Shown: piece after piece, positions 29,191 through 53,536 of the stretch
Layout: each line of letters opens with the position of its first letter
How positions within the stretch are numbered: the first letter of the stretch is position 1
Assembly: GCA_030619715.1 (NCBI GenBank)
Contig: JAUXAW010000002.1
Coordinates: 1,221 to 65,220, forward strand
From: a candidate division WWE3 bacterium
GTDB taxonomy: Bacteria > Patescibacteriota > WWE3 > JAUXAW01
Direction of reading: 5' to 3'
DNA: 64,000 nt
Made by a program: the position numbers and the translations under genes
The notes under the pieces: model-generated
Seen by the model: only the letters and a program-made list of their open reading frames with translations
Told to the model about the DNA's origin: nothing
Database searches by the model: none

Positions 29191-29193
29191 GCA

Positions 29194-30122: not shown

Positions 30123-30150
30123 CCACCCCCACCCCAAAATCTGATACAAT
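30123..30150 (+). promoter_or_regulatory. cassette promoter module Mp (ccacccccaccccaaaatcTGataCAAT), partial copy
   Basis: Extended -10-like TGATACAAT lies 10 nt before the SDR start. Same module at 32407-32470 and 39402-39465. Confidence 0.5.
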
Positions 30151-30159
30151 AATCGTACG

Positions 30160-31865: not shown

Positions 31866-31873
31866 GCTGTAGT

Positions 31874-31910
31874 CATACAGGCGTTCCGAACATCGTTTGC
31901 GATTCGGAAG
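31874..31910 (+). repeat. junction site C (degenerate): catacaggcgttccgaacatcgtttgcgattcggaag
   Basis: Aligns with site A at 32319-32356 (catacaggcgttccagacatcatttgcgatgcggagcca). Confidence 0.45.
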
Positions 31911-32038
31911 TCTTATTCGCTACCGCAGATGAGATGATTGTAGAAAGCGCAAGGTAATTATTTTAGTTTGCGCTATTTGTAAGCTTGATTTTTAAATGTG
32001 TTATTGTTATTAAAGTAATGAGAAGGAGGTGATAAATA

Positions 32039-32155
32039 GTGGCAAAAACAAAAACTTCTACCTACGGTAAAAAGAAGCAGAAAATTGTACCGGTTCGCCG
32101 TTACAAAAGAGGTGGTAAGTGGGTTAGAGGGCATAGACGCTCTACACCAAATTAA
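32039..32155 (+). CDS. candidate 38-aa highly basic protein (VAKTKTSTYGKKKQKIVPVRRYKRGGKWVRGHRRSTPN)
   Basis: GTG start 9 nt downstream of a strong SD (agaaggaggtg). Below the ORF-track cutoff. Lies in a cassette junction region. Confidence 0.35.
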   Translation: MAKTKTSTYGKKKQKIVPVRRYKRGGKWVRGHRRSTPN

Positions 32156-32273
32156 TAATAAATGCTTATTTTTGAAAAAGACATGGAGATTTTATGCAAT
32201 ATAAAGATTTTAAAATTGTGAAGTGGACTAATGGATTTCAGTTAGCTCCAGGGAGCTGAGGCGGTCTTCTATT

Positions 32274-32360
32274 GGAACTGGATCCAAATTTGGAAATCTG
32301 ATATAGTCTTCCGTGGATATACAGGCGTTCCAGACATCATTTGCGATGCGGAGCCATCCT
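32274..32360 (+). repeat. junction site A: X-type left arm (gaactggatccaaatttggaaatctgatatagtc...) + gatgcGGAGCCA core + tccttcttcgcc right arm
   Basis: Left arm is about 85% identical to 37666-37731. Core at 32350-32356. Confidence 0.6.
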
Positions 32361-32378
32361 TCTTCGCCAAAGATTTGT

Positions 32379-32404
32379 GCGGCCTTCGGGCCGCTTTGTT
32401 TTTG
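32379..32404 (+). terminator. cassette terminator module Mt (gcggccttcgggccgc + tttgttttt)
   Basis: Perfect 6-bp GC stem, 4-nt loop, T-run. Near-identical copies at 36476-36502, 37758-37786, 41425-41451. Confidence 0.7.
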
Positions 32405-32406
32405 CT

Positions 32407-32470
32407 GCGGAGACCCCACCCCCACCCCAAAATCTGATACAATGACCACACGCGGAGGCGAGGAAAAATG
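32407..32470 (+). promoter_or_regulatory. cassette promoter/5'UTR/start module Mp (gcggagaccccacccccaccccaaaatcTGataCAATgaccacacgcggaggcgaggaaaaATG)
   Basis: 62/64 identical to 39402-39465, which supplies the ALDH start codon. Here the module ATG opens only a 13-codon uORF (MSDEKYLKLGIKT) before the nitrilase ATG. Confidence 0.55.
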
Positions 32471-32512
32471 AGTGATGAAAAATATCTTAAACTTGGCATC
32501 AAGACTTGAAAG

Positions 32513-33265
32513 ATGGATAAATTTAGAGTAGCAGCGATTAATGCTGACCCCGCTAAGCCGACAGAGAGTTATCTTAGGAAGGTAAAAAGCCTAGATTGCA
32601 AATTAATTTGCTTCCCTGCTTACTATCGGAGAAATGAAAATTTGCCTGAAATGACTCGACTGGCTAAGGCTTATAAAACCTACATTCTGGCCGGTATTGA
32701 TGAGGTAAATAGCCGGAGCGGTTATAAAAGTGTCTTTCTTTTCTTCCCAGATGGGAAGAAAAGGAGACTTCATCGAAAAACAATTCTTGCCAATTTCGAG
32801 AAAAAAGATGGGTTTAGAGAAGGGAAAAGTATCAAAGTTTTTGCGTCGCCTTTTGGTAAAATCGGTGTTTCCATTTGTCTTGAGAGTTGGTATCCAGAAA
32901 CCCCGCGGATCCTGGCTTTAAAAGGAGCAGAGATCATTTTTGCCCCTGCCGGATTTGGAATGAAGAAGGGCCTGAAGTTTGACTTTTATGACAATTGGCG
33001 GGATATGCTCAAAATTAGGGCGATCGAGAATCTAGCCTACGTCATTTGTTGCACCAATGCGGTTGGTGAGAAGCCATTGGGGGTAATTATTAATCCAGAG
33101 GGCCGGATTTTGGCCGAAAGGATGGGCGAGGGGATTGTTACTACCACAATTAGCCTTAAGTGGGTAAGAAAAATGAAGACAGGCGATTATGAGGAGAGAA
33201 TCGCCGCCAAGATTCGTTTGGAGAAGAGACAACCTGGGTTGTATAGAGATCTAATTAGGAAGTAG
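32513..33265 (+). CDS. carbon-nitrogen hydrolase (nitrilase superfamily)
   Basis: E-K-C triad context: ...RKTIL..FEK... and GVSICLESWYPE (catalytic Cys in the C-[EW] motif). 250 aa. Confidence 0.75.
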   Translation: MDKFRVAAINADPAKPTESYLRKVKSLDCKLICFPAYYRRNENLPEMTRLAKAYKTYILAGIDEVNSRSGYKSVFLFFPDGKKRRLHRKTILANFEKKDGFREGKSIKVFASPFGKIGVSICLESWYPETPRILALKGAEIIFAPAGFGMKKGLKFDFYDNWRDMLKIRAIENLAYVICCTNAVGEKPLGVIINPEGRILAERMGEGIVTTTISLKWVRKMKTGDYEERIAAKIRLEKRQPGLYRDLIRK

Positions 33266-33288
33266 CTCTCAACTAATAATTTCAGGAT

Positions 33289-33345
33289 TGGAGAGCCAAA
33301 CCCTTTAAAACGGCGTAACTACGCCGTTTTCTTGTTTTGTGGTAA
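33289..33345 (+). repeat. junction site F1: ggaGAGCCA core + tRNA-Asn-downstream-type right arm
   Basis: gagccaaaccctttaaaacggcgtaactacgccgttttcttgttttgtggtaaaattggtct precedes the MBL gene start. Confidence 0.6.
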
Positions 33346-33354
33346 AATTGGTCT

Positions 33355-33939
33355 ATGGCAAAAGTTAAAGTTCTGATCGAGGGTTACGCAAAAGAAATCA
33401 AGGGCGGGTGGTTGGCTAGTTCAACCACGACTCTCATTCGGGATCGGGGTTTAAACATCGTCGTCGATCCGGGTAAGAACAGGTCACTTCTACTCCAGAA
33501 ATTCAAAGAAGAAAACCTCAGACCCGAAGACACCGACTTTGTCTTAGTGACACACACCCACCTCGACCACAGTTATCTACTAGGTATTTTTCCTAACGCC
33601 AGGGCCTTAGATGATGAGGTCGTTTACGATCAGGACAAAGAAGGCGAGCATGGCGGAACCATTCCCGGAACGGCTATTAAAATTATCTCTACTCCCGGCC
33701 ACGACCAGTTTCACAGCTCGCTCGTCGTTCCGACCGAAAAGGGAACTGTGGTTGTTGCTGGCGATGTCTTTTGGTGGGCGGACAACGAGGAGCAAAAGAC
33801 AGACGAAACGAGTTTATTAGAACGCAAAGACCCATTCGTCAAAGACGAGAAGGCTCTGCTTGAGAGTCGTAAAGAGGTTTTGAAAATCGCCGATTGGATT
33901 ATTCCAGGACACGGGAAGATGTTTAAGGTGGAAAAATGA
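33355..33939 (+). CDS. MBL-fold metallo-hydrolase
   Basis: VTHTHLDH (HxHxDH motif). Later GHDQFH, HG. 194 aa. Confidence 0.8.
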   Translation: MAKVKVLIEGYAKEIKGGWLASSTTTLIRDRGLNIVVDPGKNRSLLLQKFKEENLRPEDTDFVLVTHTHLDHSYLLGIFPNARALDDEVVYDQDKEGEHGGTIPGTAIKIISTPGHDQFHSSLVVPTEKGTVVVAGDVFWWADNEEQKTDETSLLERKDPFVKDEKALLESRKEVLKIADWIIPGHGKMFKVEK

Positions 33940-34415
33940 AATTAACAGCTAAACAAATCGAGCTCTTGAAAGAACTAATGATTAACTCTGCAAAGAAGGG
34001 AAATCTTGCCAATTCTGCTATGGTCCTGGAGAACGGCAAGCTGGTAGCTTCGGCCGAGAGTCTGGTTGTTTCAAATCACGATGCGACCGCCCATTCAGAG
34101 AGGATGTTGGTTGAGGAAGTATGCAAAAGGAAAAAGGAAAACTATACCCCGGGTTTAACCATGGTCACAGTTGCTGAGCCTTGCCTGATGTGTATGAGTG
34201 CCTGTGCCTGGGCCGGTTACAAAGAGGTTGCCTATATCATTCCAGCCGAGAAGTACATAGATAAGATTCCGTGGATGGCCGAGACCAAGGGACTCGACAA
34301 ACAGAAAATAGCCAACTCTTTTAGTGAGCCAATTAAGCTAACACACCTGAATCAATACGAAGATGAGTTTAGCGAGATATTTGAACAGGAAATGAAAGGG
34401 CTGTTAGAAGGCTAG
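33936..34415 (+). CDS. CMP/dCMP-type zinc deaminase (nucleoside/tRNA-adenosine deaminase-like)
   Basis: HSERMLVEE (H[AC]E motif). EPCLMCMSAC (PCxxC motif). ATGA overlap with the upstream gene. Confidence 0.7.
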   Translation: MKLTAKQIELLKELMINSAKKGNLANSAMVLENGKLVASAESLVVSNHDATAHSERMLVEEVCKRKKENYTPGLTMVTVAEPCLMCMSACAWAGYKEVAYIIPAEKYIDKIPWMAETKGLDKQKIANSFSEPIKLTHLNQYEDEFSEIFEQEMKGLLEG

Positions 34416-34450
34416 CATCGGCACTACCGCCGAACAAATCTCCTGAAAGT

Positions 34451-34540
34451 AGGTTCCGACGTGTTCAACCACGTGGAGCCAAACCCTTTAAAATGGCGTA
34501 ACTACGCCATTTTCTTGTTTTGTGGTAGAATTGGTCCTGT
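34451..34540 (+). repeat. junction site F2: Y-type left arm (aggttccgacgtgttcaaccacgt) + GGAGCCA core + tRNA-Asn-downstream-type right arm
   Basis: Left arm matches site E (41385-41399). Right arm matches F0/F1. Core at 34475-34481. Confidence 0.6.
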
Positions 34541-34709
34541 AGGTAAAAAACTAGTGGTAAGGTTGATTGTTGCAAGCGATTACGACCTTGACCTGGCATT
34601 ACTTAAAGTTCCTAAGGGAGTAGAGTTGGAATTTTATAAATTATAAAGTAACCATAATTCTATGGTTTATTCGTCAAAATTGTTTCTTAACAGATAAGAA
34701 TAATCAAAA

Positions 34710-35351
34710 ATGGCATTCAAAAGAAACATGAACCAGGAGGAAATGATTAGTTTTATTGATAATGAATTATTTCCTCAAATTAAGAAAGAGATTAAAAATT
34801 GGATTTATCCAAAAAAACAGACTGGTGGATATTTTGCAGTAACCAGGCAAATATTTTGCATGGTTGATTTCTTGGGTGCGGTGTATGCGGGATACCCTTT
34901 AGTGGAAAAGAGAAATGACGAAAGAGGAGAGAAAATTGCTACATCTAAAAAAGCCATAAAGTTCATTACTACGTTTTTTGAGCCGGAAGAAACCTATCAG
35001 CAGGATATTGTAACTAAACTATATAAAATGTACCGCCATGGACTTGTGCATCTCTACCAACCCAAGATTCTAAAATTGGGCTCTAGAAAAAGACTGAAGT
35101 GGTTTTTTTACAGGGGCGCAAGACACAAAGAAGAAATAAAAATAGGGGAAATAGTATTCAAAGATATTAATCATCTTCAGATATACATCGATGAAAATAA
35201 CAGAAAGCACAGCTATCTTGTTATTAGTATTGATTGTCTTTATAAGGACTTTGAAGAGGCAATCAAGCGATATAGGTACAAGTTAGCAAATACAAAGTGT
35301 TTACAAAGAAACTGGCGTACGGCTGTTAATGCTATCTGTAAGCCCCGATGA
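34710..35351 (+). CDS. hypothetical protein in AT-rich (about 37% GC) segment; contains Rx4H (RHGLVH) HEPN-like motif
   Basis: 213-aa ORF. Composition is distinct from neighbours. The motif is the only hint of function. Confidence 0.5.
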   Translation: MAFKRNMNQEEMISFIDNELFPQIKKEIKNWIYPKKQTGGYFAVTRQIFCMVDFLGAVYAGYPLVEKRNDERGEKIATSKKAIKFITTFFEPEETYQQDIVTKLYKMYRHGLVHLYQPKILKLGSRKRLKWFFYRGARHKEEIKIGEIVFKDINHLQIYIDENNRKHSYLVISIDCLYKDFEEAIKRYRYKLANTKCLQRNWRTAVNAICKPR

Positions 35352-35520
35352 AAGTACTAAAGCAAGAGGATGGTTGGACTATTTGAGCTTCTTTTGCTCT
35401 TTGTGTAAAACCTTAACTTGAGTTAAAATATAGGAAAATGAAGATGAGGAGTAATATGAATAAATTTATCAAAAATTTACTAGAGTAATTGCATCCAGTA
35501 TAATTGATAGAAAGGACAAT

Positions 35521-36420
35521 ATGAAAAAGGTTGTAGTATTAGGTGCTAAACCAAACGATGACCAGAAGACGCGATTAGAGGCGTTGGGTGAAGTAAAGTA
35601 TCTTCCAAGTCCGTCTAACTCCGATGAGTTAATGAAGCAGGCTGGAGGAGCTGATGTTCTTTACAGTGATGGTGCATTTTTACTTGAGAGCTTGCCAAAG
35701 TTGAAAAATGTATTTGTAACATATCCATATGTTGAACTTGGAGTTTTTAATTCGGAAGAGTTGAAGAAAAATGGTGTGTTGGTTGCAAACTCTCAAGGAG
35801 GCAATAGACCTTCAATTATTGAGTGGGTAATGTTTATGGTTTTGTCTTTGTTTAGGAAATTCACCCCTATGGTTAGAGCCACAGAAAATTTTCCTGTGGA
35901 GTTACAACAAAGTTTGAGTGGAAAGAAAGTACTGATAGTTGGGAAGGGTAGCATTGGGACTAAGATTGCAATACCTTGTGAGGCTTTTGGAATGGAAGTT
36001 TCATTTTTCGAGCGTGGAGACAATTTACACGCAAAATCTGCAGATGCTGACTTGGTGATAAATTCGCTTAACTGCAACTCTACCAGCAAGAACCTACTTG
36101 ATGAGAAATTCTTCATGTCGCTTAAGAAGGGAGCATACTACATTACATTTGTTAGGCCATATACCTATGATTTGGATGGATTACTAAAATCAATTGACAA
36201 TGGGGTGGTGGCAGGAGCGGCAATTGACTGCGACCCAGAGAAATTTGGGGATACTACAAACGAGTTTTATAAAAAAGCCCTAAGCGATCCAAAAGTGCTA
36301 GTAACCCCCCACATAGCCTTTTCTACTAAACAGGCAATAGTAAATGGTGGAGAAATAGCCGTAAAAAATATTGAGGCTTTCGTTGCAGGTAAACCCCAGA
36401 ATGTGCTAACTAAGAAGTAA
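35521..36420 (+). CDS. D-isomer-specific 2-hydroxyacid dehydrogenase family protein
   Basis: VGKGSIGTKIA NAD-binding motif. Catalytic region ...TPHIAFSTKQA... AT-rich. Paralog of the interrupted gene at 30897-31865. Confidence 0.8.
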   Translation: MKKVVVLGAKPNDDQKTRLEALGEVKYLPSPSNSDELMKQAGGADVLYSDGAFLLESLPKLKNVFVTYPYVELGVFNSEELKKNGVLVANSQGGNRPSIIEWVMFMVLSLFRKFTPMVRATENFPVELQQSLSGKKVLIVGKGSIGTKIAIPCEAFGMEVSFFERGDNLHAKSADADLVINSLNCNSTSKNLLDEKFFMSLKKGAYYITFVRPYTYDLDGLLKSIDNGVVAGAAIDCDPEKFGDTTNEFYKKALSDPKVLVTPHIAFSTKQAIVNGGEIAVKNIEAFVAGKPQNVLTKK

Positions 36421-36437
36421 GCCAGTTCTAACTTCTT

Positions 36438-36502
36438 CCACTACGGGGAGCCATCCTCCTTCGCTAAAGATTTATGCGGCCTGCGGGCCGCTTTGTTTTT
36501 GT
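36438..36502 (+). repeat. junction site D: ccactacggGGAGCCA core + tcctccttcgctaaagattta right arm + Mt terminator
   Basis: Left part resembles site E (ttactacgtggagtca). Right arm resembles site A. Core at 36447-36453. Terminator gcggcctgcgggccgctttgtttttg at 36476-36502. Confidence 0.55.
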
Positions 36503-36625
36503 TCTCACCGACTTGACAAAACTATGAGTTTACGATAGAGTTACCAGTGTAGTACTCAAAACCCTACAAAAGGGGGTATTACAACAAATAAGGGTGGCGA
36601 CCTAACCGCCAGAAAGGGGTGTGAC

Positions 36626-37567
36626 GTGGTAAAGAGATCTTTGTTCACGAGTTTTCCCATTTTAGCAGCGCTTCAGGAGGCCGACAAGTTCATAGCAGGC
36701 GTCCTCTGGGAGGAGAAGCAGGTGAGACCTGAAGGACCTCTCCAGTGGGTTGCCAGCAATGACATGCAGGCCGCCCTGATCGGTCCGCGCATTTGGGGCC
36801 AGACGTTGGCCGCACTGGCTGGCTTTGCAGAAGGGGAAATGTCTTCCATTGCCGACTGGGACGTGGAGGTCATCAACGCCTTCCTACGTGGAGAGGAGTT
36901 TGAGATTCAACTGCGTCCTTGGCCCAAGGAGGATCGGCTCACCTTCGGTATTGCGGCCATCATCAAGCTGCTACGCGAATGGCGCGTCCGGGGAGAGGAG
37001 GGTTACAAGGTGGTCGATTGGCGCAAGGCCTTCCGTCTAGGGGCTCCTGCAGCGCAAGGTGGGGTGGAGTTCTACCGTGCCTCTGGCGAAGTCGTGGTTC
37101 GCATCCCGACCAAGGTTCGTGGCGACTACGTCTGCGTCACTAAGGCATCGGAGCCAAAGACCCACTTTGACCTGCTGTTCTTCTGCATGGATACCCGGAG
37201 TGCGATGGAGCCGACCGACGAGTTCACCGGAGCCATCTTGCCCAACTGGACGTTCCAGGAAGAGGTTGACGTTTCGGATCTCATCAACCTTCGGACGGAA
37301 GACGCCGTTGGCCAGCCATGGTGGCTCGCTCAGGCGCTGATGGAAGGCAAGTCCGCCTTCTGCGCGGAGGGAATTTCCTTCAAGGCTGCCTTCGCCGCCG
37401 CCGTCATGCTCGGTGGGTCTCGGCCGAAGGAACCCGGCCCACGTGACCACGTTGTAGATTACGATTTGGTCATGTGGATCGATCGCGAAGACGTCCCTGT
37501 TCCTTTGGGTGCCGTTTATGTAGCGACCGACGAATTCTCACAGACTGACGTTCGCCTGGAGTGGTAG
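36626..37567 (+). CDS. hypothetical protein, GC-rich (about 60%)
   Basis: 313-aa ORF, GTG start after aaaggggtg. No recognisable motif. Composition suggests foreign origin. Confidence 0.5.
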   Translation: MVKRSLFTSFPILAALQEADKFIAGVLWEEKQVRPEGPLQWVASNDMQAALIGPRIWGQTLAALAGFAEGEMSSIADWDVEVINAFLRGEEFEIQLRPWPKEDRLTFGIAAIIKLLREWRVRGEEGYKVVDWRKAFRLGAPAAQGGVEFYRASGEVVVRIPTKVRGDYVCVTKASEPKTHFDLLFFCMDTRSAMEPTDEFTGAILPNWTFQEEVDVSDLINLRTEDAVGQPWWLAQALMEGKSAFCAEGISFKAAFAAAVMLGGSRPKEPGPRDHVVDYDLVMWIDREDVPVPLGAVYVATDEFSQTDVRLEW

Positions 37568-37583
37568 TCTTGAGGAGTGATTA

Positions 37584-37640
37584 GGGCTAGTATCCACACA
37601 CAAGTTTGACTTGTGGATACTAGCCTGTTTTTGTTTTGAG
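37584..37640 (+). terminator. long palindromic terminator (ctagtatccacacacaag ttt gac ttgtggatactag + T-run)
   Basis: About 17-bp imperfect stem followed by cctgtttttgttttg. Confidence 0.6.
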
Positions 37641-37665
37641 AATTAAGCTGTTAGGGGAACTGGAT

Positions 37666-37738
37666 CCAAACTCGGAAATCTGATATATTCCTCGGTAGCC
37701 ATACAAGTGCTCCGAACGTCGTCCACGATGCGGAGCCA
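37666..37738 (+). repeat. junction site B: X-type left arm + cgatgcGGAGCCA core + gttttgagtttt right arm
   Basis: Left arm matches site A. Right arm matches site E. Core at 37732-37738. Followed by Mt terminator at 37758-37786. Confidence 0.6.
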
Positions 37739-37824
37739 GTTTTGAGTTTTAATAGAAGTGGCCTGCGGGCCGTTTTGTTTTTTCCCCAGAAATTTTTCTT
37801 TACCCTTGTGTTAAAATCTAGACC

Positions 37825-39342
37825 ATGAATGAGGACGAGAAGTACGAGGGAGAAGTTGACTTCGAAGGTGAGAAAGAGGGAATAGGAAAGAAAGTTAGGA
37901 AATTGCCGCCGGCTCCGGTTGCCGCCGCCGTTGTTGTCCTTGTCTTGGCGGGGGTCCTCGGCGGCTATTTTTTATACCAGCGGTATTTTGGGAGAACCGC
38001 TCCGGAGGAAGTTTCTGCACCCGCTACCCAAACCAAAGTTCCCAAATTAGATCCCCAGAAAGAAAAAACCCATCTTTCCAGAGTGGCCGATACCCAAGGT
38101 GCCTACTTTGCCCGAGCCTTCGATCTGTTTTGGGGCGATGTGGAAACCCAAAGAGGGAAATTTGATTGGTCTTTGACCGACGAACAAATAAGATGGCTTA
38201 ACGAGGAGGAGATTTACCCTTTGGTTATTGTCAAACCCTTTGCTCTTTGGGACCAAGAAAGTTGCCACCCGGAGGAAAGATACGAAGCCGAATTTGACCC
38301 CCGGAAAGGCTACCGAATCAAGGTCGGTAAACCTTGCGACCTAATAGCTTTCGGTCAGTTTTTGGAAAAAGCGGTCGAGCGCTACGATGGTGATGGGATC
38401 GAAGATATGCCCGGTCTGACGATTCCGATTAAATACTGGGAGATTATGAACGAGCCGACGATGCAAGGTGGCGTCACCGGCGGGATGGGCGAGGAATTGA
38501 AATTCTTTGTCGGCACCTCTAAGGATTATCTAGAAATTCTCAAAACTTCCTATCAAGCGATCAAAAAAGCCGATCCGGAGGCAAAAGTTCTACACGCGGG
38601 AATGGCGGGGATGGACCGAAACTTTCGAGATTTCTGGCGGCCGGTTTTTGCTCAAGGCGGTGGGCAATATTTTGACATCGCCAATATCCATACCATTTCG
38701 ACCGATCAAAGGAGAGAGGATTTGTTTGTGATCAGGTTCAAAAGATTTTTGCAAGAATTTGGTCTGCAAGGCAAGCCGATCTGGATCACCGAGGTTCAGT
38801 TTGGCCGTCTGGCGGAAAAACCTGAAGATTTAGAAAGTTTTGAGATTTTGGTGACCAAAGCCTCGGTTTTTGCCCTGGCCCAAGGGACGGATAAACTAAT
38901 TTACATCTCAAATTGGACGGACTTTTGGCCCTCCTTCGCCAACCCACTTCGCCAAGGCTACGAGGGTCAAGAGGCTTCGGAGGGTAAGGAAGAAATGAAA
39001 AAGGAGAAGAAATTTAAAGTTAGCCCTGAGGTTTTAGCAAGTTCCACTCACCAAGTTTACCTCAATTTGGTCGATAAGGTTAATCAGTTTGACCGGATAG
39101 AAAAGATTAAGGAGGAGTACATCGAAAATCAGGGCGACCACGATGGCGCCACCTCCAACATTGGGCAGTATAAGTTTGTTTCCGGCGATAAATCGGTTTA
39201 TGTTCTTTGGGGTCAAGCCGAACTTCCCGCGGAAATTTCCGGCCAAGTTAGAGTGACGGATATTTATGGTCAGACAGGGACGATGGACGCCTCTTTAATC
39301 AATCTTTCCGCCGCGCCAATTTTTGTCGAGCCCAGCCGTTGA
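37825..39342 (+). CDS. membrane-anchored clan GH-A glycoside hydrolase (GH5-like)
   Basis: N-terminal TM. WEIMNEP (acid/base NEP). IWITEVQFG (nucleophile TE) spaced as in GH5/GH-A (beta/alpha)8 enzymes. Confidence 0.6.
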   Translation: MNEDEKYEGEVDFEGEKEGIGKKVRKLPPAPVAAAVVVLVLAGVLGGYFLYQRYFGRTAPEEVSAPATQTKVPKLDPQKEKTHLSRVADTQGAYFARAFDLFWGDVETQRGKFDWSLTDEQIRWLNEEEIYPLVIVKPFALWDQESCHPEERYEAEFDPRKGYRIKVGKPCDLIAFGQFLEKAVERYDGDGIEDMPGLTIPIKYWEIMNEPTMQGGVTGGMGEELKFFVGTSKDYLEILKTSYQAIKKADPEAKVLHAGMAGMDRNFRDFWRPVFAQGGGQYFDIANIHTISTDQRREDLFVIRFKRFLQEFGLQGKPIWITEVQFGRLAEKPEDLESFEILVTKASVFALAQGTDKLIYISNWTDFWPSFANPLRQGYEGQEASEGKEEMKKEKKFKVSPEVLASSTHQVYLNLVDKVNQFDRIEKIKEEYIENQGDHDGATSNIGQYKFVSGDKSVYVLWGQAELPAEISGQVRVTDIYGQTGTMDASLINLSAAPIFVEPSR

Positions 39343-39401
39343 TGATTCCGGCCGTTGTGTGTCCAACAGAAATTTATTCACTAGGCCGCTTTGTTTTTGT
39401 T

Positions 39402-39465
39402 GCGGAGACCCCACCCCCACCCCAAAATCTGATACAATGACCGTACGCGGAGGCGAGGAAAAATG
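39402..39465 (+). promoter_or_regulatory. cassette promoter/5'UTR/start module Mp, supplies the ALDH start codon
   Basis: 62/64 identical to 32407-32470. Preceded by a degenerate Mt remnant (ggccgctttgtttttg). Confidence 0.55.
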
Positions 39466-40845
39466 AAATTGAAATCGATCAACCCACACGACCAGTCAGT
39501 AGTTGGGGAATTGAAAATCTCTACCCAGCAAGATGTTAAGAGGGCAGTGAAGAAAGCGAAAAAGGCCTTTGGCCCGTGGCAAGCTTTGTCGGTGGCTGAA
39601 AGAGTTGAATATATTAAAAGATTTAGGACAAAGGTAGCCAAGAACAAGGAGAAGATTGCCAAGCTCACGACACTTGAGATGGGTAAGCCTCTGCAGCAAT
39701 CACTTGACGATGTTAGCTGGGAACTTGAGTTTCTCGATTACTACATTAAAAAGGGACCCGAATACCTAGCTGACGAGACTGTCTACAAGAAAGGGAAAGA
39801 ACATTTTCGAGTAAGTTACGAACCTTATGGCGTTTGTGCCTGTATCGCCCCCTGGAATTTTCCGCTTTCGATGGCCAACTCCGGTGTTATTCCCGCTTTG
39901 ATTGCGGGAAACACGGTCATTCTTAAGCCTTCCGAATACACCAGTCTAAGCCAGAAGATAATCATCGATTTGTTACAGAAATCTAGAATACCCGATGGAG
40001 TCGCCAATCTCTTAATCGGTGGTGGTGAGGTTGGGAAAATGCTCATTGACGAGCCGATCGATCTGGCTTGGTTCACTGGTAGCACTAAGGTTGGTCAGGA
40101 GATTTACAGAAAATGTGGCAAGAAGTTTATCAAAGCGTTGCTAGAGATGGGTGGAAGCAGTCCCGGTATCATTTTCGCCGACGCCAATCTTGATTTAACG
40201 ATGGATAATCTCTACTGGGCCAGGTTTCTAAACTGTGGTCAGGTTTGCACCGCTATCAAGAGACTATTTGTTGAGATGCCAGTTTATAGAAAAGTGGTCA
40301 ATCTTTTCGTAGATAAGCTTAAAACGGTAAAAGTTGGTAACCCAATGGATAAGAAAACCGATATTGGCCCGCTCGTTTCCCAAAAACAACTTAAGTTATT
40401 AAAAGAGCAGGTGGCGGACGCAATTTCTAAAGGAGCAAAAGTAGAGATCGGTGGCAAACAGCCCGAAGGCAAAGAGTTCGAGAAGGGTAACTATTTTGAA
40501 CCCACGGTTCTCACGGACATTACCACAGATATGAGGGTATTTACCGAAGAAACATTTGGTCCTGTACTGCCAATTATCCCTTTTAAGACGGAGGAAGAAG
40601 CAATAAGACTCGCTAACAGAACGGAGTATGGTTTAAGTGCTGAAATTTACACCACCGACCTTGAGAAAGGCGAACGGGTCGCTAAACAAATAGAAGCGGG
40701 TACGGTCGCCATCAACACCGACGATTTCTTCAAGCCAGAATGTCCCTTCGGTGGATACAAGAAAAGTGGGATGGGTAGAGAGTATGGTGAAATTGGAATG
40801 AAGGAGTTCTCACAAGTAAAATTGATCGCTGTTGTTAGACCCTAA
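39463..40845 (+). CDS. NAD(P)-dependent aldehyde dehydrogenase
   Basis: LEMGGSSP (ELGGKSP-type motif). FLNCGQVCTA (catalytic Cys). 460 aa. Confidence 0.9.
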   Translation: MKLKSINPHDQSVVGELKISTQQDVKRAVKKAKKAFGPWQALSVAERVEYIKRFRTKVAKNKEKIAKLTTLEMGKPLQQSLDDVSWELEFLDYYIKKGPEYLADETVYKKGKEHFRVSYEPYGVCACIAPWNFPLSMANSGVIPALIAGNTVILKPSEYTSLSQKIIIDLLQKSRIPDGVANLLIGGGEVGKMLIDEPIDLAWFTGSTKVGQEIYRKCGKKFIKALLEMGGSSPGIIFADANLDLTMDNLYWARFLNCGQVCTAIKRLFVEMPVYRKVVNLFVDKLKTVKVGNPMDKKTDIGPLVSQKQLKLLKEQVADAISKGAKVEIGGKQPEGKEFEKGNYFEPTVLTDITTDMRVFTEETFGPVLPIIPFKTEEEAIRLANRTEYGLSAEIYTTDLEKGERVAKQIEAGTVAINTDDFFKPECPFGGYKKSGMGREYGEIGMKEFSQVKLIAVVRP

Positions 40846-40861
40846 GGATGGGGGAGGAAAA

Positions 40862-41377
40862 ATGAAAGTAATACTTTATGTGGCTACTTCGATTAACGGA
40901 TTAATAACTAAGGGGGAGGATGATTCTGACTGGGTAACAGAAACAGACTGGAAGGAATTTGGCAGTTTGATGAGAGATTGCGGCATTATGGTAATGGGCA
41001 GAAGGACTTATGAAATTTTTGGTGATGATTTCCCTTGCGAGGGGGCGGTTAACGTAGTTATGACTAGCCAAAGGAAATTGTTGGGCCAAGAGACCTCAAA
41101 GGATGTAATCTTCACAGACAAAACTCCCAGGGATGTTGTAAAGATGGCGGAAGAAGAGGGATTCAAAAAATTAATGCTTATTGGGGGTATGAAGCTTAAT
41201 ACTTCCTTTTTCGAGGAGGATTTGATCGATGAAGTCTGGCTTAGTGTTCACCCACTTCTGATAGGTAACGGCAAGATGATTATGGATAAGATTAATTATG
41301 ATAGAAAAGTAAAACTACTCGGCATTAAGGAGTTAGATGAGGGTCTAGTCCAACTCCGTTACGAGATTGTAAAATAG
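40862..41377 (+). CDS. dihydrofolate reductase family protein (RibD C-terminal domain-like)
   Basis: MKVILYVATSINGLITKGEDDSDW...MGRRTYE is typical of the RibD_C/DHFR-like family. Confidence 0.7.
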   Translation: MKVILYVATSINGLITKGEDDSDWVTETDWKEFGSLMRDCGIMVMGRRTYEIFGDDFPCEGAVNVVMTSQRKLLGQETSKDVIFTDKTPRDVVKMAEEEGFKKLMLIGGMKLNTSFFEEDLIDEVWLSVHPLLIGNGKMIMDKINYDRKVKLLGIKELDEGLVQLRYEIVK

Positions 41378-41384
41378 GTTCCGA

Positions 41385-41451
41385 CGACGTTTACTACGTG
41401 GAGTCAGTTTTGAGTTCTGAAGAGGCGGCCTGCGGGCCGCTTTGTTCTCGC
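41385..41451 (+). repeat. junction site E: Y-type left arm (aggttccgacgacgtttactacgt) + GGAGTCA core + gttttgagttctg right arm + Mt terminator
   Basis: Core at 41400-41406. Terminator ggcggcctgcgggccgctttgtt at 41425-41451. Confidence 0.55.
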
Positions 41452-41502
41452 CGTTGGTCTTTATGGTAGAATGAGTAGAGCAACGTTTGGGGGTGATTAA
41501 AG

Positions 41503-50172: not shown

Positions 50173-51093
50173 ATGATGGCTGAAGAGAAAGAAACAAAAG
50201 AGAATGCCAACAAGTGGTTGGTGGTGGTCGGTTTGATTATGACCGGTCTGTTGATCGGTGGGGGACTGGTTTTTGCCGGCTACAAGTTGACCCAGCAAAA
50301 GGTTCCCGAAGCAGCACCAACACTGCCTGTTGAAAGGCCTGAAGTTGAGGAGGCAACTCCTTCGCCGGCCCCGGCCGCCCCGGTCGAAACGCTCCCCGGA
50401 AATTGCGATGACGAATGTGTTGCCCAAGGATTTGTGTCGGGCTACTGCGGTTCGGCGGCTGTCTATCCCGGTGAGGAACCGTGCGAGTCCGGTGAGACAA
50501 ACATCGGTTGGACAAAGGACTGCCAGATTCCCGAAGGTTTAATTGGGGTACAGAAGGGGTGTTGCTGTGTCCCCGATGGGGAATCCGCCTCTGGCGGACC
50601 GACGGCCGACTGGGAGATCTACACCAACACCGATTACGGTTATCAATTCAAGCATCCCGCCGGCTGGATTTTTACCGCCCGGATGGTAGCGACCGATCCT
50701 TCCAAGCCTCTCTACGTAATTCGTCAAGAGGTTCAGAGTAATAATATTGATGATTATCTGGTCTCGGTTAGGGCTTGGGACAACCCCGATGGGCTTTCTT
50801 TAGCTGATTGGATTCAGTTTATGAAGGACTCCAATGCTTTTGCGACGCCGACGGAGGATATGGACACGACGGCCAACACCGAGGTTGGTGGGGAGCAAGC
50901 GCTGCAGTTTTGGAGCGACCCTTTATCTGGTGGTCAGGAACCGGGGGAGTGCTTCCAGGCCTGTCCGGTTTTAAGTGTCTATTTTGTCCACGGGGACAAG
51001 GCCTATGCGGTTGAACTTAATTATATGCGCGAGTTTGACGAAGATAGCTTCATCCTCTTCTCCCAAATCCTTTCCACTTTTGAGTTCCTCTAA
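50173..51093 (+). CDS. membrane-anchored Cys-rich secreted protein with conserved C-terminal ...ILSTFEFL domain
   Basis: TM. 10-Cys module (NCDDECVAQGFVSGYCG...CCCVPDG). C-terminal domain is paralogous to 17141-18091. Confidence 0.55.
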   Translation: MMAEEKETKENANKWLVVVGLIMTGLLIGGGLVFAGYKLTQQKVPEAAPTLPVERPEVEEATPSPAPAAPVETLPGNCDDECVAQGFVSGYCGSAAVYPGEEPCESGETNIGWTKDCQIPEGLIGVQKGCCCVPDGESASGGPTADWEIYTNTDYGYQFKHPAGWIFTARMVATDPSKPLYVIRQEVQSNNIDDYLVSVRAWDNPDGLSLADWIQFMKDSNAFATPTEDMDTTANTEVGGEQALQFWSDPLSGGQEPGECFQACPVLSVYFVHGDKAYAVELNYMREFDEDSFILFSQILSTFEFL

Positions 51094-51133
51094 CCATTTT
51101 ACCCGCCTAAATTTCGAAAATTATGGCGGGTTG

Positions 51134-51236
51134 ACAACCCTCCAAGTTAGTGCTATAAGGACACTGCAAGGGGAGACTTTTTCTATCCGCTGGAGCGTTT
51201 TGCTCCGTTTAGTATCTCAAAATAAGGAGGAGAGGG
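51134..51236 (+). promoter_or_regulatory. promoter (TTGACA-17-TATAAG) plus conserved about 80-nt leader with GGAGC/GCTCC hairpin and SD AAGGAGGAGAG; copy 1
   Basis: Aligned by eye with 52080-52183. Conserved blocks tgcaaggRgagWcttt, tggagcNtttYgctcc, atctcaaaataaggaggagag. Confidence 0.5.
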
Positions 51237-51902
51237 ATGCAAAAGAACAGTCTTATCAAAAGGTACTTTCTGCGGTACATAACCTCAATTTTCGCAGTAT
51301 GCTTCCTAAGCTTGGTTGTGGCAGCATCAGCCGTTGCGGTTGGGGTGTACAGACTTTCCCCGGATCGATTAGACTTAGCTCCCTTATCCATGGTTGGGGT
51401 GGCGGGGTTAACGCTGATACTGACGATCCTGCACGTTGTGGTCGCTAGACTCCTCGTCAACTACAACCTCAAGGAGTCGGGGCTCTACTTCCGGGTCAAG
51501 GATGGGAAGGTCGACGCGGCCAACCCCCAGTGGGGGAAGGATGGGGTTTGGGTCAGCTTGCCTCGGACCGACCAGCCGCACGAGATTGGGTTTCCTCGTT
51601 ACGAGGTTCCCATCTGGAGCGAACCCATAGTCCTGAAGGTCTTTTTCAGGGATGTGTTTAATCCCCAGGAGGTGTACGAGAAGGTCTTCGCCGTTGGGTA
51701 TGGTAGCTTCGATCTCTGGTTGCGAGATAGGTTTCTTGCAGCAGTAGCGGGCTCTCCAGTTCAGGATGCGCTCCGCCTCACTCGCCAGCGCTCGTCGGAT
51801 GAGTTGGAGAAGGCGTTGCTTGGATTGGAATTCTCCGGCGGCCTGGAAAATATCGGCTATGTTGAGGCCACCGCTACCACGAGTGTGACGGTCCGCTTCT
51901 AG
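51237..51902 (+). CDS. membrane protein, paralog A (2-3 N-terminal TM + conserved soluble domain with SLPRTDQP motif)
   Basis: 221 aa. Shares NP.WGK....SLPRTDQP.E......P....P.V.LKVFF...F.P.EVY with 52184-52909. Confidence 0.55.
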   Translation: MQKNSLIKRYFLRYITSIFAVCFLSLVVAASAVAVGVYRLSPDRLDLAPLSMVGVAGLTLILTILHVVVARLLVNYNLKESGLYFRVKDGKVDAANPQWGKDGVWVSLPRTDQPHEIGFPRYEVPIWSEPIVLKVFFRDVFNPQEVYEKVFAVGYGSFDLWLRDRFLAAVAGSPVQDALRLTRQRSSDELEKALLGLEFSGGLENIGYVEATATTSVTVRF

Positions 51903-51924
51903 CCACCGGAAGGTACCACGCCAA

Positions 51925-51975
51925 AAAGGGGCGTCGAGATTCTCTTTTTGAGACTTGAGACTCGACGCCTTCATT
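51925..51975 (+). terminator. conserved hairpin ggggcgtcgagattctctttttgagacttgagactcgacgcc (copy 1; copy 2 at 52925-52978)
   Basis: 9-bp outer stem ggcgtcgag/ctcgacgcc with T-rich interior. Both copies follow the paralogous genes. Confidence 0.5.
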
Positions 51976-52079
51976 CTTTTTTCCTCCTCTTCGATAATTC
52001 AATTCATCGAATTATTAGAATTCAGCCATCCGCCAGAGGCGGACAAGTTTAACAATTTAACCATTTAGCCATTTATCTT

Positions 52080-52183
52080 CTTGACAACCCCACAAACTAG
52101 TGCTATAAGGGTATTGTTGCAAGGAGAGTCTTTAAGCCAATGGAGCTTTCGCTCCACATCTCAAAATAAGGAGGAGAGAGAAA
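52080..52183 (+). promoter_or_regulatory. promoter plus conserved leader, copy 2
   Basis: TTGACA-17-TATAAG. Hairpin tggagctttcgctcca. Identical SD block atctcaaaataaggaggagag. Confidence 0.5.
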
Positions 52184-52909
52184 ATGAAAAACAGAATATT
52201 CGATTGGGGCAAAAGGTACTTTCTGATAACGGCTAAGGCTCAGGGCGGTTCTTTTAGGATGGGCTTCCTCATTGGCTTGCTATTGTTCGCGATCACCGGG
52301 TTCGCGACGATAACCTTGCAGCTCGCAGGTCACGACATCGGTCCCGGTGTAGCGTTCAGCTGTCTCGGGTCCGCTCTGGTGCTAGGGATCGTGAATACCC
52401 GCGTCGTTGATCGCTACATCTGCTACAGCGAGGAGCCGGGGCTTTTCTTCCTGACCAACGGTGGGCCCATCCGTCTAGACGAAGAGGGAAGAGCTATTGG
52501 GGCAAACCCGCTGTGGGGGAAGGGGCTTTTCATCAGTCTTCCCCGAACCGACCAGCCGTACGAGAAGCAGGTTCTCCGGAGGGATTTTCCTGAAACGAAA
52601 ATCCCCTTGGTAGTGTTGAGGGTCTTCTTCAAAGGAGAGTTTGATCCTCACGAAGTGTACCAAGGTATCTACAGATCCGGATTCGATCCCAGTAGCTTCA
52701 ACCGTTCGTTGTCGTCGGCGTTCCTGCACGCGGTGCGGAATGCCGGCGAGGAGGAGGTGTTTTATTCGCAGGCCTATGAGCTCCCTCCGGATGAGATAGA
52801 GGCAAAGCTGGGAAAAGTGCGTTCGCACTTCACCGCTTGGAGAGATTTCAGCAACATCGACCACATCGATCTTGAAGTCTCTCCGACTGTGACAATCAGC
52901 TTCAACTAA
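52184..52909 (+). CDS. membrane protein, paralog B
   Basis: 241 aa. See 51237-51902. Confidence 0.55.
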   Translation: MKNRIFDWGKRYFLITAKAQGGSFRMGFLIGLLLFAITGFATITLQLAGHDIGPGVAFSCLGSALVLGIVNTRVVDRYICYSEEPGLFFLTNGGPIRLDEEGRAIGANPLWGKGLFISLPRTDQPYEKQVLRRDFPETKIPLVVLRVFFKGEFDPHEVYQGIYRSGFDPSSFNRSLSSAFLHAVRNAGEEEVFYSQAYELPPDEIEAKLGKVRSHFTAWRDFSNIDHIDLEVSPTVTISFN

Positions 52910-53092
52910 CTTCTATCAGAAAGTACCAAACGCCGAGGGGCGTCGAGGTTCTCTTTTTGAGATTCAAGACTCGACGCCCTTCCACATCTTCTCGTTACTA
53001 CTGCCTATTCCCTAGTGCCTATTGCCTAGCGTTTGCTTTTTCCCCATTTTTGTGCTAAAAATAAGGCAAATACAGCCAAGGGAGAGGAGAGG

Positions 53093-53536
53093 GTGAAAAA
53101 AGCACAAGTTCTATTACTGTTGGCTGCGGCGCTCGTTCTGTGCGCGTGCGCACCAGCGGTGGCAGCACCGGAACCAACTCCCACACAGGAACCGGCCCCA
53201 ACACCAATCGGGACGCCGGATCCAAGGTGGGCGGTAATGTGTGTGGAATTGGAAGAAAATCTTGATGTGTGTTTTTTGGCACCGGACAAGATTAAAACCA
53301 ACCTGTTCACCGGCCCAGTCGTCAAAGTTAAACTCAATTTGGTCACTTTGGCGGGCGGAATCCGGACCCGCACCATTGAGGTAGGGGAGGTGCAGAAGGA
53401 AGAGATCGGCTACGAGACTTTCGTTCTCGAGATAACAAAAGACGTAACCAACTTTGATCGCGTCTTCGTCTACATCGTGATTGAGGGTCGAGAGTTTGAG
53501 TTCGGCTTTCCGATCGTGGAGTGTTCGCCGCAGTGA
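53093..53536 (+). CDS. secreted/lipoprotein-like hypothetical protein
   Basis: Probable GTG start after gggagaggagagg. Signal peptide KKAQVLLLLAAALVLCACAPAVAA. Pro/Thr-rich linker. Confidence 0.45.
   Translation: MKKAQVLLLLAAALVLCACAPAVAAPEPTPTQEPAPTPIGTPDPRWAVMCVELEENLDVCFLAPDKIKTNLFTGPVVKVKLNLVTLAGGIRTRTIEVGEVQKEEIGYETFVLEITKDVTNFDRVFVYIVIEGREFEFGFPIVECSPQ

Follow-up and report, generated by a model that had tools for sequence, protein, structure and literature searches.

Candidate cis-acting mRNA architecture around a tandem pair of membrane-protein genes in a candidate division WWE3 bacterium

Two adjacent genes of a candidate division WWE3 bacterium raise the question of what near-identical non-coding flanks are doing around tandem genes of 221 and 241 aa whose proteins are 29% identical. 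The original prediction described two autonomous paralogous modules, each made up of a promoter, a leader, a membrane-protein gene and a terminator, and saw in the leader an architecture typical of translational riboswitches or RNA thermometers. The modular layout is borne out: every element named was found in place in the 64 kb window (the whole stretch of DNA that we analysed), where each non-coding block occurs in exactly two copies against 0-0.3 expected. Identity between module 1 and module 2 amounts to 87% in the promoter and 82% in the 3′ block, compared with 45-50% in the sequence just outside the module. The two modules are laid out as follows.

51131..51159, + strand: module 1 promoter-like site, TTGACA, 17 nt, TG-n-TATAAG, conserved in full-length homologous modules (-35 TTGACA 51131-51136; extended -10 TG 51151-51152; TATAAG 51154-51159)
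51166..51236, + strand: module 1 leader, inferred start ~51166 (folding, alignment, covariance model)
51237..51902, + strand: paralogue 1 CDS, 221 aa (open reading frame, AlphaFold2 model)
51927..51983, + strand: module 1 terminator hairpin (GGGGCGTCGAG...CTCGACGCC, 51927-51969) with T-rich tail (folding z -2.4)
52081..52109, + strand: module 2 promoter-like site TTGACA-17-TATAAG (sequence match; TTGACA 52081-52086; TATAAG 52104-52109)
52116..52183, + strand: module 2 leader (folding, alignment, covariance model)
52184..52909, + strand: paralogue 2 CDS, 241 aa (open reading frame, protein comparison)
52936..52990, + strand: module 2 terminator hairpin (52936-52978) with a weak T tract (folding z -3.8)

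Ten further homologues, drawn from at least six other assemblies or samples, sit in the same module, and only this orphan family carries it. The resulting 12 modules comprise the two in the window, two loci of GCA_030602025.1 that each hold a tandem pair, GCA_964638355.1 and four metagenome sources; homologous modules and loci outside the window are given L-numbers (e.g. L001A). These extra loci came from exact-protein look-ups, in which one protein (P0016) had no DNA to go with it and the window's own protein gave no record; a word-based search for homologues, run with the family profile, yielded only 2 further proteins. A protein pattern scan of the genome contig collection for further copies returned nothing, and a DNA pattern combining promoter and SD gave 5 chance matches in genome contigs and 4 in metagenome contigs. 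Across modules, segment identity is 0.83 for the promoter, 0.73 for the leader and 0.76 for the 3′ block, with 0.57 for the CDS body and 0.47-0.50 for the outside flanks. Because the flanks of paralogues show concerted evolution, the 12 modules are not independent.

The promoter ascribed to both genes (TTGACA-17-TATAAG) stands in sequence and spacing and is conserved in all full-length homologous modules, with a mean identity of 83%. It matches the sigma-70-type consensus at 11/12, with a 17 nt spacer and an upstream TG, but a consensus promoter scan passes over it because position 6 of the -10 element is G and the usually invariant final T is missing. We regard it as a candidate near-consensus sigma-70-type promoter with an extended -10. 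The complex hairpin predicted as a terminator is shared by both modules, and in each it folds better than shuffles. It has 15 conserved pairs and varies chiefly by one-sided wobble changes, plus 2 compensatory pairs. Module 1 has a good U tract behind it and module 2 a poor one; neither is called by a simple terminator scan. Our preferred reading, which we hold tentatively and at slightly less than an even chance, is that each gene forms its own transcription unit and that its non-coding parts make up a family-specific cis-acting mRNA architecture, of inferred function, and not a ligand sensor.

The leader, first put at about 80 nt, measures about 67-76 nt from the inferred start. In both modules it holds an SD-like AAGGRGAG, a GGAGC-loop-GCTCC hairpin and the real SD in the fixed order that had been described.

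51168-51175, + strand: module 1 SD-like block AAGGGGAG
51192-51206, + strand: module 1 hairpin GGAGC-GUUUU-GCUCC, flanked by U51191.G51207
51224-51234, + strand: module 1 SD AAGGAGGAGAG, preceded by an A-rich spacer
52121-52128, + strand: module 2 SD-like block AAGGAGAG
52141-52156, + strand: module 2 hairpin UGGAGC-UUUC-GCUCCA (GGAGC to GCUCC 52142-52155)
52168-52178, + strand: module 2 SD AAGGAGGAGAG

In 11/12 leaders the AAGGRGAG block is found at +3 to +12 of the inferred transcript. No start codon follows it at SD distance; the closest NUG stands 11-16 nt away, and 3 leaders lack it. A uORF starting from this NUG, just 5′ of the hairpin, was rejected on the same spacing, on the three missing starts, and on frames and stops that differ elsewhere. 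In modules 1 and 2, the NUG frame 5′ of the hairpin terminates at a UAA overlapping the SD. We also rejected the hairpin as a transcription attenuator, since a U-rich tail follows it in module 1 only.

The hairpin arms are invariant in 11/12 leaders, the exception being L019B, a homologue without the GCUCC arm, while the loop is always U-rich and 4-6 nt long. The flank change between the two copies (U.G versus U-A), first described as compensating, turned out to be a G/A change on one side only, and A stands opposite A in 3/11 homologous hairpins. Across the 12 leaders RNAalifold gives one consensus element, a 5-bp hairpin, and 0 compensatory pairs, and the leader folding energy is not better than that of shuffles (z -0.8 and 0.0 for modules 1 and 2). 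Conservation of the leader extends beyond the tandem pair, to 10 further modules, and covariation, the other sign expected of a switch, is nil in the hairpin and in the alternative helix. A covariance model of the leader, the check proposed with the original prediction, matches it in 99 kb only upstream of this gene family.

A translational switch would have the loop and 3′ arm (UUUU-GCUCC) pair either with GGAGC (ON) or with the SD GGAGGAGAG (OFF), triggered by temperature, a protein, an sRNA or a ligand; we consider such a switch quite unlikely. An anti-SD pairing between UUUUGCUCC and GGAGGAGAG is feasible: its cost over the leaders runs from +0.3 to +7 kcal/mol. The GCUCC arm can reach the SD, as had been proposed, and together with the U-rich loop it does so at a cost of only +0.3 to +4.3 kcal/mol in 10/11 leaders and as the MFE in three (L002, L007 and L020). 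The alternative helix is open to all 12 leaders, with 94.8% of cells pairable, the loops stay U-rich despite their variation in length, and bases shared by two helices should not vary, which would account for the missing covariation. Against this, shifted registers pair almost as well (72-92%), and the alternative helix is therefore generic pyrimidine-purine complementarity that is not specific to a register. Furthermore, the local hairpin beats the SD helix in 8/11 leaders, the GCUCC arm is missing from L019B, and no leader element is able to sequester GGAGC and so release GCUCC. The predicted accessibility of the SD, P(SD free), spans 0.000-0.66 across homologues, no lower than for dinucleotide shuffles. 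Between 10 C (0.000-0.19) and 45 C (0.002-0.78) it changes as in generic melting, with no consistent switch, and an SD paired in the dominant cold fold and freed by warming was not found across the leaders.

Comparison with known RNA families points the same way. At gathering thresholds, Rfam returned only tRNAs in the whole window, and a scan of 51050-53100 at E<=10, ROSE and fourU models included, gave no match on the leaders. A conserved multi-helix aptamer with covariation was not found in the 12 leaders, and their only consensus structure, at 5 bp, is too small for a metabolite aptamer. The fourU and ROSE thermometers likewise have a U run plus pyrimidines able to pair with the SD, and in them the SD-containing hairpin dominates the low-temperature fold (PMC10586365, PMC2887971); here, in contrast, most leaders favour the competing local hairpin, SD masking is unconserved and the Rfam thermometer models find no match. 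The architecture is real, but as a riboswitch or RNA thermometer it is weakly supported and this is not the best reading. In practice the result for that claim is negative, and the locus does not belong on a list of riboswitch or thermometer candidates until experiments have been done.

Invariant arms also invite a different explanation, in which the hairpin, possibly together with GGA-rich blocks, is the site of a dedicated RNA-binding regulator (CsrA-like, a ribosomal protein, or a partner of the encoded protein) that represses or activates translation. Both arms are sequence-invariant while the loop and the surrounding leader diverge, a pattern that sequence-specific recognition typically leaves and structure alone does not, and the leader has three conserved GGA-containing blocks 20-30 nt apart. 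However, typical CsrA sites present GGA in a loop, and the GGA of this hairpin sits in the stem; L019B manages without the 3′ arm, and no candidate binding protein was identified. We judge such a regulator improbable.

Under our preferred reading, a cis-acting mRNA architecture, the leader would provide strong, protected initiation. The SD-like AAGGRGAG, within ~10 nt of the inferred 5′ end, is placed and composed as a STAB-SD-type 5′ stabiliser holding a 30S subunit should be. The 5-bp GGAGC/GCUCC hairpin with its U-rich loop would mimic an SD:anti-SD pair within the leader and so occupy its only CUCC tract, leaving the A-rich spacer and the extended SD AAGGAGGAGAG to follow. The SD is predicted to be more accessible than in at least 89% of shuffles in 6/12 leaders; this fits a hairpin that neutralises the CUCC tract, an effect seen in only half of them.

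A second conserved element links the two ends of the predicted transcript. The codons for RYFL (GGUACUUUCUG) near the start of the CDS are complementary, over 11-14 bp, to CAGAAAGUACC just 3′ of the stop codon in 12/12 modules. In the window, the partners are the following.

51262..51272, + strand: module 1 5′ site GGTACTTTCTG, codons R-Y-F-L, +26 to +36 of the CDS (complementarity, synonymous constraint)
51907..51917, + strand: module 1 3′ site CGGAAGGTACC, 4 nt past the stop; 11 bp with the 5′ site, 2 of them G.U (complementarity)
52215..52228, + strand: module 2 5′ site GGTACTTTCTGATA, codons RYFLI (complementarity)
52914..52927, + strand: module 2 3′ site TATCAGAAAGTACC, beginning 5 nt past the stop (complementarity, folding)
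52917-52927, + strand: conserved 11-nt core of the module 2 3′ site CAGAAAGTACC, beginning 7 nt past the stop

In module 2 the helix consists of 14 consecutive Watson-Crick pairs, has a pair probability of 1.00 and belongs to the MFE of the 871-nt transcript. Full-length folds give it a probability of at least 0.73 in 9/12 transcripts; it is absent from the full-length predicted fold of module 1, L006 and L007. When the longest 5′ CDS/3′ UTR helix was compared among the 62 ORFs of the window, module 2 ranked first and module 1 second to third over a background of 5-6 bp, and by duplex energy alone module 1 was unremarkable (rank 9/48).

Conservation bears on the same point. Over the 12 modules 129/132 core cells are paired, and synonymous sites in the 5′ site are frozen: TTT is used in 12/12 modules against 41% in the family, and CTG in 11/12 against 22%. 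Of the 10 transitions in the helix, nine are compatible with wobble pairing on the sense RNA, or 7/8 when taken as independent events (hand count, binomial p ~0.035). The helix core shows no double-sided compensatory change in the 12 modules, and the extensions of the helix do differ compensatorily, with GAUA/UAUC in module 2 versus GGC/GCC in L001A. A shuffle control of the helix is uninformative because its columns are nearly invariant. We also considered that the 3′ site might free the SD by capturing the pyrimidine-rich 5′ site, and rejected this since P(SD free) with, without or with a mutated 3′ site shifts inconsistently in silico. The sequences show a conserved complementarity between 5′ region and 3′ UTR within one predicted transcript, as expected of a cis 5′-3′ interaction of the hbs/icaR type, and the pairing looks like a built-in control of mRNA stability or translation.

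The same repeats could instead act in DNA. Gene conversion might keep the flanks alike as homology arms for cassette swaps, or the 11-bp inverted repeats might be recombinase sites that invert the CDS (phase variation), with the RNA structures incidental. The coding cassettes between constant flanks diverge and recombine rapidly under our preferred reading too. Module 1 and its positional orthologue L001A share 100% of the promoter and 88% of the leader and only 56% in the CDS bodies. Module 2 is a mosaic, 99% identical to L001B from 52412 on (background 84-96%), with an N-terminal, 5′ half that cannot be aligned at the DNA level. Flank subtypes are moreover common to a genome or tandem pair against the protein phylogeny (the terminator type of modules 1 and 2, the L014A/B type), and the inverted repeats lie exactly at the borders of the variable region.

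Several observations nevertheless make a purely DNA-level origin doubtful, and we think it has little chance of being right. Flanks are kept between distant lineages whose CDS are ~30-50% identical, which needs selection, and they are conserved also in the single-copy genomes L002, L006 and L019, against pure gene conversion. Substitutions in the repeats lean towards changes that permit G.U pairing on the sense strand, a bias not predicted for DNA sites, and the two repeats of module 1 differ at 2/11 positions. As for invertible segments of the inverton or shufflon kind, 13/13 modules have a single orientation, and none of the loci examined adjoins a recombinase gene. Inversion would yield a peptide of ~16-25 aa and no alternative protein; productive recoding by inversion of the CDS was rejected, as the long antisense ORF of module 1 (51408-51974) is not in the junction frame. 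Finally, the hairpin spacer varies between 4 and 6 nt, which also disfavours the hairpin as a dimeric DNA operator.

The proteins themselves have no match in Pfam, NCBIfam or PDB sequences. Paralogue 1 is modelled with an N-terminal KRYFL helix, two transmembrane helices and then a beta/alpha domain (AlphaFold2 pLDDT 84, pTM 0.72). Prohibitin or Band-7 proteins are the top fold matches in 3/3 Foldseek searches, of which two used PDB and one the viral library BFVD, and all matches are non-significant (E 0.2-1.5, TM 0.27-0.33). An N-terminal membrane anchor followed by a mixed beta/alpha domain is shared with SPFH/Band-7 proteins (prohibitin, stomatin), and we take this as resemblance only, short of family membership. 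The 5′ site of the helix doubles as coding sequence of the conserved KRYFL motif.

Returning to the cis-acting architecture, we propose that the 11-14 bp helix, which would join codons 9-12 to the bases directly behind the stop, closes transcripts that are free of ribosomes. Elongating and terminating ribosomes would both have to open it. In this way translation would govern the fate of the mRNA, whether shielded from RNases or open to them, much as in B. subtilis hbs. All three elements of this model, namely start site, 3′ end and 5′-3′ helix, are predicted. In a bolder version, which we think rather unlikely, this is a previously undescribed "closed-loop" mRNA design: the helix, opened by initiating or elongating and by terminating ribosomes, would form together with the SD:anti-SD mimic of the leader a translation sensor that sets mRNA fate, dedicated to hypervariable, recombining membrane-protein cassettes of an uncultured lineage.

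These modules would matter in two respects. The non-coding flanks can stay constant while the cassettes between them diverge to ~30% identity and recombine, a pattern usually linked to variable surface proteins. Furthermore, to our knowledge conserved cis contacts between the two ends of a bacterial mRNA have been studied experimentally in few cases, icaR and hbs among them. The predicted contact described here is conserved throughout a gene family, between a site inside the CDS and one directly next to the stop codon, and it would give a testable model of the coupling between translation and mRNA decay in an uncultured lineage.

Parts of the proposed architecture have counterparts in known systems. 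STAB-SD stabilises the 5′ end of cry3A mRNA (Agaisse & Lereclus 1996; reviewed in PMC4113751), and like it the AAGGRGAG block is an SD-like sequence, predicted to lie near the transcript 5′ end, upstream of the real SD and with no start codon at SD distance; 30S binding and a block to RNase J would follow by analogy. In S. aureus icaR, a UCCCCUG motif of the 3′ UTR pairs with the SD, which prevents initiation and yields a substrate for RNase III (Ruiz de los Mozos et al. 2013, PMC3868564). Here too a 3′ UTR element would pair with the 5′ region of its own mRNA, but ~26-36 nt downstream of the AUG, and SD accessibility is not consistently changed in silico. [quoted passage not shown] The hbs helix has both partners in UTRs and covers part of the leader with an RNase Y site, whereas the helix predicted here has its 5′ partner in codons 9-12 of the CDS and its 3′ partner starting 1-7 nt past the stop, and because of this placement translating and terminating ribosomes would have to open it.

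The original prediction placed W1 and W2, two neighbouring membrane-protein genes, in a tandem pair of modules with common flanks, each consisting of a promoter, a leader (5′ SD-like block, GGAGC/GCUCC hairpin and extended SD), a coding sequence and a terminator. We found that this organisation holds with small corrections, every shared flank block being present in exactly two copies across the 64 kb compared with 0-0.3 expected:

51237-51902, W1 coding sequence, 221 aa, co-directional with W2
52184-52909, W2 coding sequence, 241 aa, co-directional with W1
51131 and 52081, promoter block TTGACAACCC..TAGTGCTATAAGG
51192 and 52142, hairpin GGAGC-N4/5-GCTCC
51214 and 52158, block ATCTCAAAATAAGGAGGAGAG
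51930 and 52939, block GGCGTCGAGRTTCTCTTTTTGAGA

The two proteins share 29% identity (E 1e-23) and, judged from their alignment, are true though distant paralogues. Similarity is much higher in the flanks than in the coding regions, with W1/W2 identities of 0.87 in the promoter, 0.67 in the leader and 0.82 in the 3′ block, compared with 0.74 at the start of the coding sequence and 0.58 in its body; just outside the module, identity is 0.45-0.50, the alignment baseline. An open reading frame on the minus strand (51408-51974, 188 aa) runs antisense across the terminator and the greater part of W1; it does not share the frame of the inverted-repeat junction and, lacking support, is probably spurious.

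Ten further complete modules were obtained by exact-protein look-ups:

L001A and L001B, GCA_030602025.1, syntenic with the window
L014A and L014B, another contig of GCA_030602025.1, a second tandem pair
L019B, GCA_964638355.1, syntenic, single copy
L002, L006, L007, L020 and L021, four metagenome sources

TTGACA-17-TATAAGG is found in every further module whose contig extends that far, and the 5′ SD-like block, extended SD and GGCGUCG... terminator recur in all ten. Averaged over every pair of modules, identity is 0.83 in the promoter, 0.76 in the 3′ block, 0.73 in the leader and 0.57 in the body of the coding sequence. With a covariance model derived from the 12 leaders, these score 68-80 bits, and no other sequence in 99 kb (window plus loci) exceeds 21 bits, thus the leader is, on sequence grounds, real, conserved and family-specific, with a conservation that reaches beyond the two tandem copies.

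Missing from the original prediction is a complementarity between the two ends of the gene. The R-Y-F-L codons (GGUACUUUCUG, +20 to +36 of the coding sequence; the 5′ site) are the reverse complement of CAGAAAGUACC (the 3′ site), which begins 1-7 nt after the stop codon and in L006 overlaps it. In the window the resulting 5′-3′ helices are:

52215-52228 with 52914-52927, W2, 14 consecutive Watson-Crick pairs
51262-51272 with 51907-51917, W1, 11 pairs, two of them G·U

When 62 window ORFs were ranked by their longest contiguous helix between 5′ coding sequence and 3′ UTR, W2 came first and W1 tied second, with a background of 5-6 bp; by bulge-tolerant duplex energy, W2 ranks 2/48 and W1 just 9/48. 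Across the 12 modules the helix core is paired in 129 of 132 cells, and outside the core it is extended by different sequences that pair with each other (GAUA/UAUC in W2, GGC/GCC in L001A). Nine of ten transitions retain a G·U pair on the sense RNA (7/8 when shared changes are counted once, p ~0.035) and the two transversions both break a pair; no double-sided compensation was found in the core, and a shuffle control was uninformative as the columns hardly vary. Synonymous positions of the 5′ site are frozen, with TTT in 12/12 (41% of Phe family-wide), CTG in 11/12 (22% family usage) and TAC in 10/10; as a weakness of this evidence, the site also encodes a protein motif that constrains it. In whole-transcript folds (810-890 nt), the mean predicted pair probability of the helix is 0.73 or higher for nine of the 12 modules, the exceptions being W1, L006 and L007. 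The specific idea that the 3′ site releases the SD was tested in silico, with a negative outcome.

Changes in the terminator hairpin are, like those of the 5′-3′ helix, mostly one-sided and wobble-compatible, with two compensatory pairs in addition; these substitution patterns therefore make an RNA-level constraint on the module flanks plausible. By eye, an ACGCC-like pentamer lies just upstream of the terminator (51920-51935, 52927-52945 and homologues), with wobble-compatible variants GUGCC, AUGCCC and ACGCU. It can pair with the start of the terminator 5′ arm (GGCGU), mimicking the 3′ arm, and may offer a weak alternative pairing or lengthen the 5′-3′ helix.

In the genes that flank the modules, the window and L001 are 84-96% identical. 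Against this background, blastn finds no match between the W1 coding sequence and its positional orthologue L001A despite identical promoters, and W2 cannot be aligned to L001B over its N-terminal third. From 52412 past the terminator, W2 is 99% identical to L001 (window 52412-53054, L001 10229-10871), a stretch comprising the C-terminal two-thirds, the terminator and the downstream spacer. Because this stretch abuts the unalignable third and the neighbours are 84-96% identical, the alignment indicates a recent recombination or transfer breakpoint within W2. Terminator subtypes are common to a genome or tandem pair, independent of protein similarity. Together with the W1/L001A and W2/L001B mismatches, this argues for turnover and recombination of the coding cassettes between flanks that stay constant, in part through gene conversion. 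In a serious rival explanation the module acts at the DNA level only, with the flanks as homology arms or with the 11-bp inverted repeats as the bounds of invertible segments. Against it stand the bias of substitutions to wobble-compatible changes, the non-identity of the two repeats of W1, the same orientation of 13/13 modules with no recombinase gene nearby, and the retention of the flanks in single-copy lineages.

Other repeated elements occur in the window and in related genomes. Between modules in related genomes lies a conserved element, AGTGATGAAATGACA ... TGTCACTCC (L001 9700-9790; L014 3805-3910; L007 905-960; L020 ~880-930; L006 505-535), an inverted repeat TGACA/TGTCA around a variable insert with small palindromes of its own. 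The window lacks this element and has, in the W1-W2 spacer, CGATAATTC..GAATTATTA and a CCGCCAGAGGCGG hairpin; this short hairpin motif or its complement recurs in intergenic and genic positions (19891, 20358, 50578, 52030-52042, 61377, 62717). At 29060-41500, conserved intergenic blocks (for example 31875-31908, 32319-32356, 33292-33300, 34446-34481, 36418-36453, 37701-37738 and 41371-41406) separate unrelated metabolic genes (HAD, SDR, nitrilase, MBL-fold, deaminase, ALDH, DHFR-like). In each block, a stem-loop resembling an acceptor/T-arm minihelix (GGUUCC-G-ACGUG / UUCAAC / CACGU-GGAGCC-A; for 34416-34525, fold z -4.1) and ending in GGAGCCA, the 3′-terminal 7 nt of the real tRNA-Asn (29062-29136), is followed by a terminator hairpin, GCGGCCUKCGGGCCGC-UUUGUUUUUG or GGCGUAACUACGCC-AUUUUCUUG, and then by CCACCCCCACCCCAAAATCTGATACAAT, which is promoter-like. 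Neither ARAGORN nor Rfam recognises the blocks as tRNAs, and they could serve as tRNA-like signals for processing or punctuation, or be repeated remnants of att type.

Of the 12 leaders, 11 have unchanged GGAGC and GCUCC hairpin arms around variable loops (GUUUU, UUUC, UUUU, GCUUU, UUUUUU, UUUUA), while L019B, which reads GGAGCUUUUGAUACUCUU, is without the 3′ arm. RNAalifold on the 12 leaders gave this 5-bp hairpin as its sole output and no compensatory change, and the compensating flank pair noted between the two copies is U·G or U-A in eight leaders but A opposite A in three. The leader matches no Rfam family, E<=10 included. Invariance of both arms in sequence is compatible with a target for a sequence-specific RNA binder; a dimeric DNA operator is argued against by a spacer that varies from 4 to 6 nt. 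Just 5′ of the hairpin, an NUG (CUG in W1, AUG in W2) opens a frame that crosses it and ends at a UAA overlapping the SD (51190-51225 and 52140-52169; 12 and 10 codons including the stop). UUG, CUG or AUG is found there in 9/12 leaders; as frames and stops are unconserved, it is probably not a real uORF.

The same leader had been proposed to be a riboswitch or RNA thermometer in which GCUCC pairs alternatively with the SD. The U-rich loop and 3′ arm (UUUUGCUCC) are complementary to GGAGGAGAG, and forcing this anti-SD helix costs 0.3-4.3 kcal/mol in 10/11 leaders (7.1 in L014B); it is the MFE structure in L002, L007 and L020, and in these models the idea has some thermodynamic basis. The pairing, while affordable, is not register-specific, occurring in 94.8% of cells compared with 72-92% for slid registers, and shows no covariation. 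At 37 °C, P(SD free) spans 0.000-0.66 across homologues, and its native percentiles against dinucleotide shuffles of the upstream leader are 1.00, 0.89, 0.95, 0.56, 0.26, 0.37, 0.27, 0.92, 0.36, 0.98, 0.50 and 0.91. If anything, the native layout would keep the SD open, because the local hairpin occupies the only CUCC tract of the leader. A temperature series from 10 to 45 °C produced only gradual, generic opening, and no GGAGC competitor able to release GCUCC was found in the leader. Since these controls oppose a conserved switch, we regard a riboswitch or thermometer as possible but unlikely: the predicted architecture is real, and the ligand or temperature response attributed to it is unsupported.

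Sequence searches matched the W1/W2 family to nothing in Pfam, NCBIfam, PADLOC, PHROGs or PDB. When 1.84 billion representatives were searched exhaustively with a profile, just 42 proteins were recovered at E<=1e-3, of which 17 reached E<=1e-10; almost all of the 42 are 220-270 aa long. The AlphaFold2 model is confident (pLDDT 84, pTM 0.72; C-terminal domain alone pTM 0.81) and orders a short N-terminal helix with a conserved KRYFL, two long hydrophobic helices and a beta/alpha domain. Prohibitin or Band-7 proteins were repeatedly the top Foldseek matches, never significantly (E 0.2-1.5, TM<=0.33). With no family match and these non-significant hits, the proteins are best described as orphan membrane proteins, the models giving at most a hint of SPFH-like organisation. 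The more distant L022 (profile E 2e-13) has a different hairpin, CUUGAG-ACU-CUCAAG, directly 5′ of the SD; its terminator stem is still GGGGCGUC, and its 3′ site is complementary in part. L013 (94-5763), a low-GC tandem operon of distant members (~25% identity) adjacent with a 56-nt gap, has no such conserved leader; the pair adjoins a two-component system, whose GAF-histidine kinase and two response regulators lie upstream of it, and TGAACTTTC follows each of the two L013 genes.

Taken together, the likeliest reading, which we hold tentatively, is that the module is a family-specific cis-acting mRNA architecture. Element conservation, exclusivity to the family and the complementarity with its substitution pattern are shown by the sequences, and the folding energetics by thermodynamic prediction; the transcript ends are putative. 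In such an architecture the 5′ SD-like block would act like STAB-SD (PMC4113751), and the leader hairpin would insulate the SD or bind a factor. Because the 5′-3′ helix has to be opened by any ribosome that occupies codons 9-12 or the stop codon, it would persist on ribosome-free mRNA only, a geometry that supports coupling to translation. Both kinds of element in the module, a 5′ stabiliser or leader hairpin and a 5′-3′ mRNA interaction, are known; the main points of note here are the conserved helix from coding sequence to 3′ UTR and the organisation into constant flanks and variable cassettes. [quoted passage not shown]
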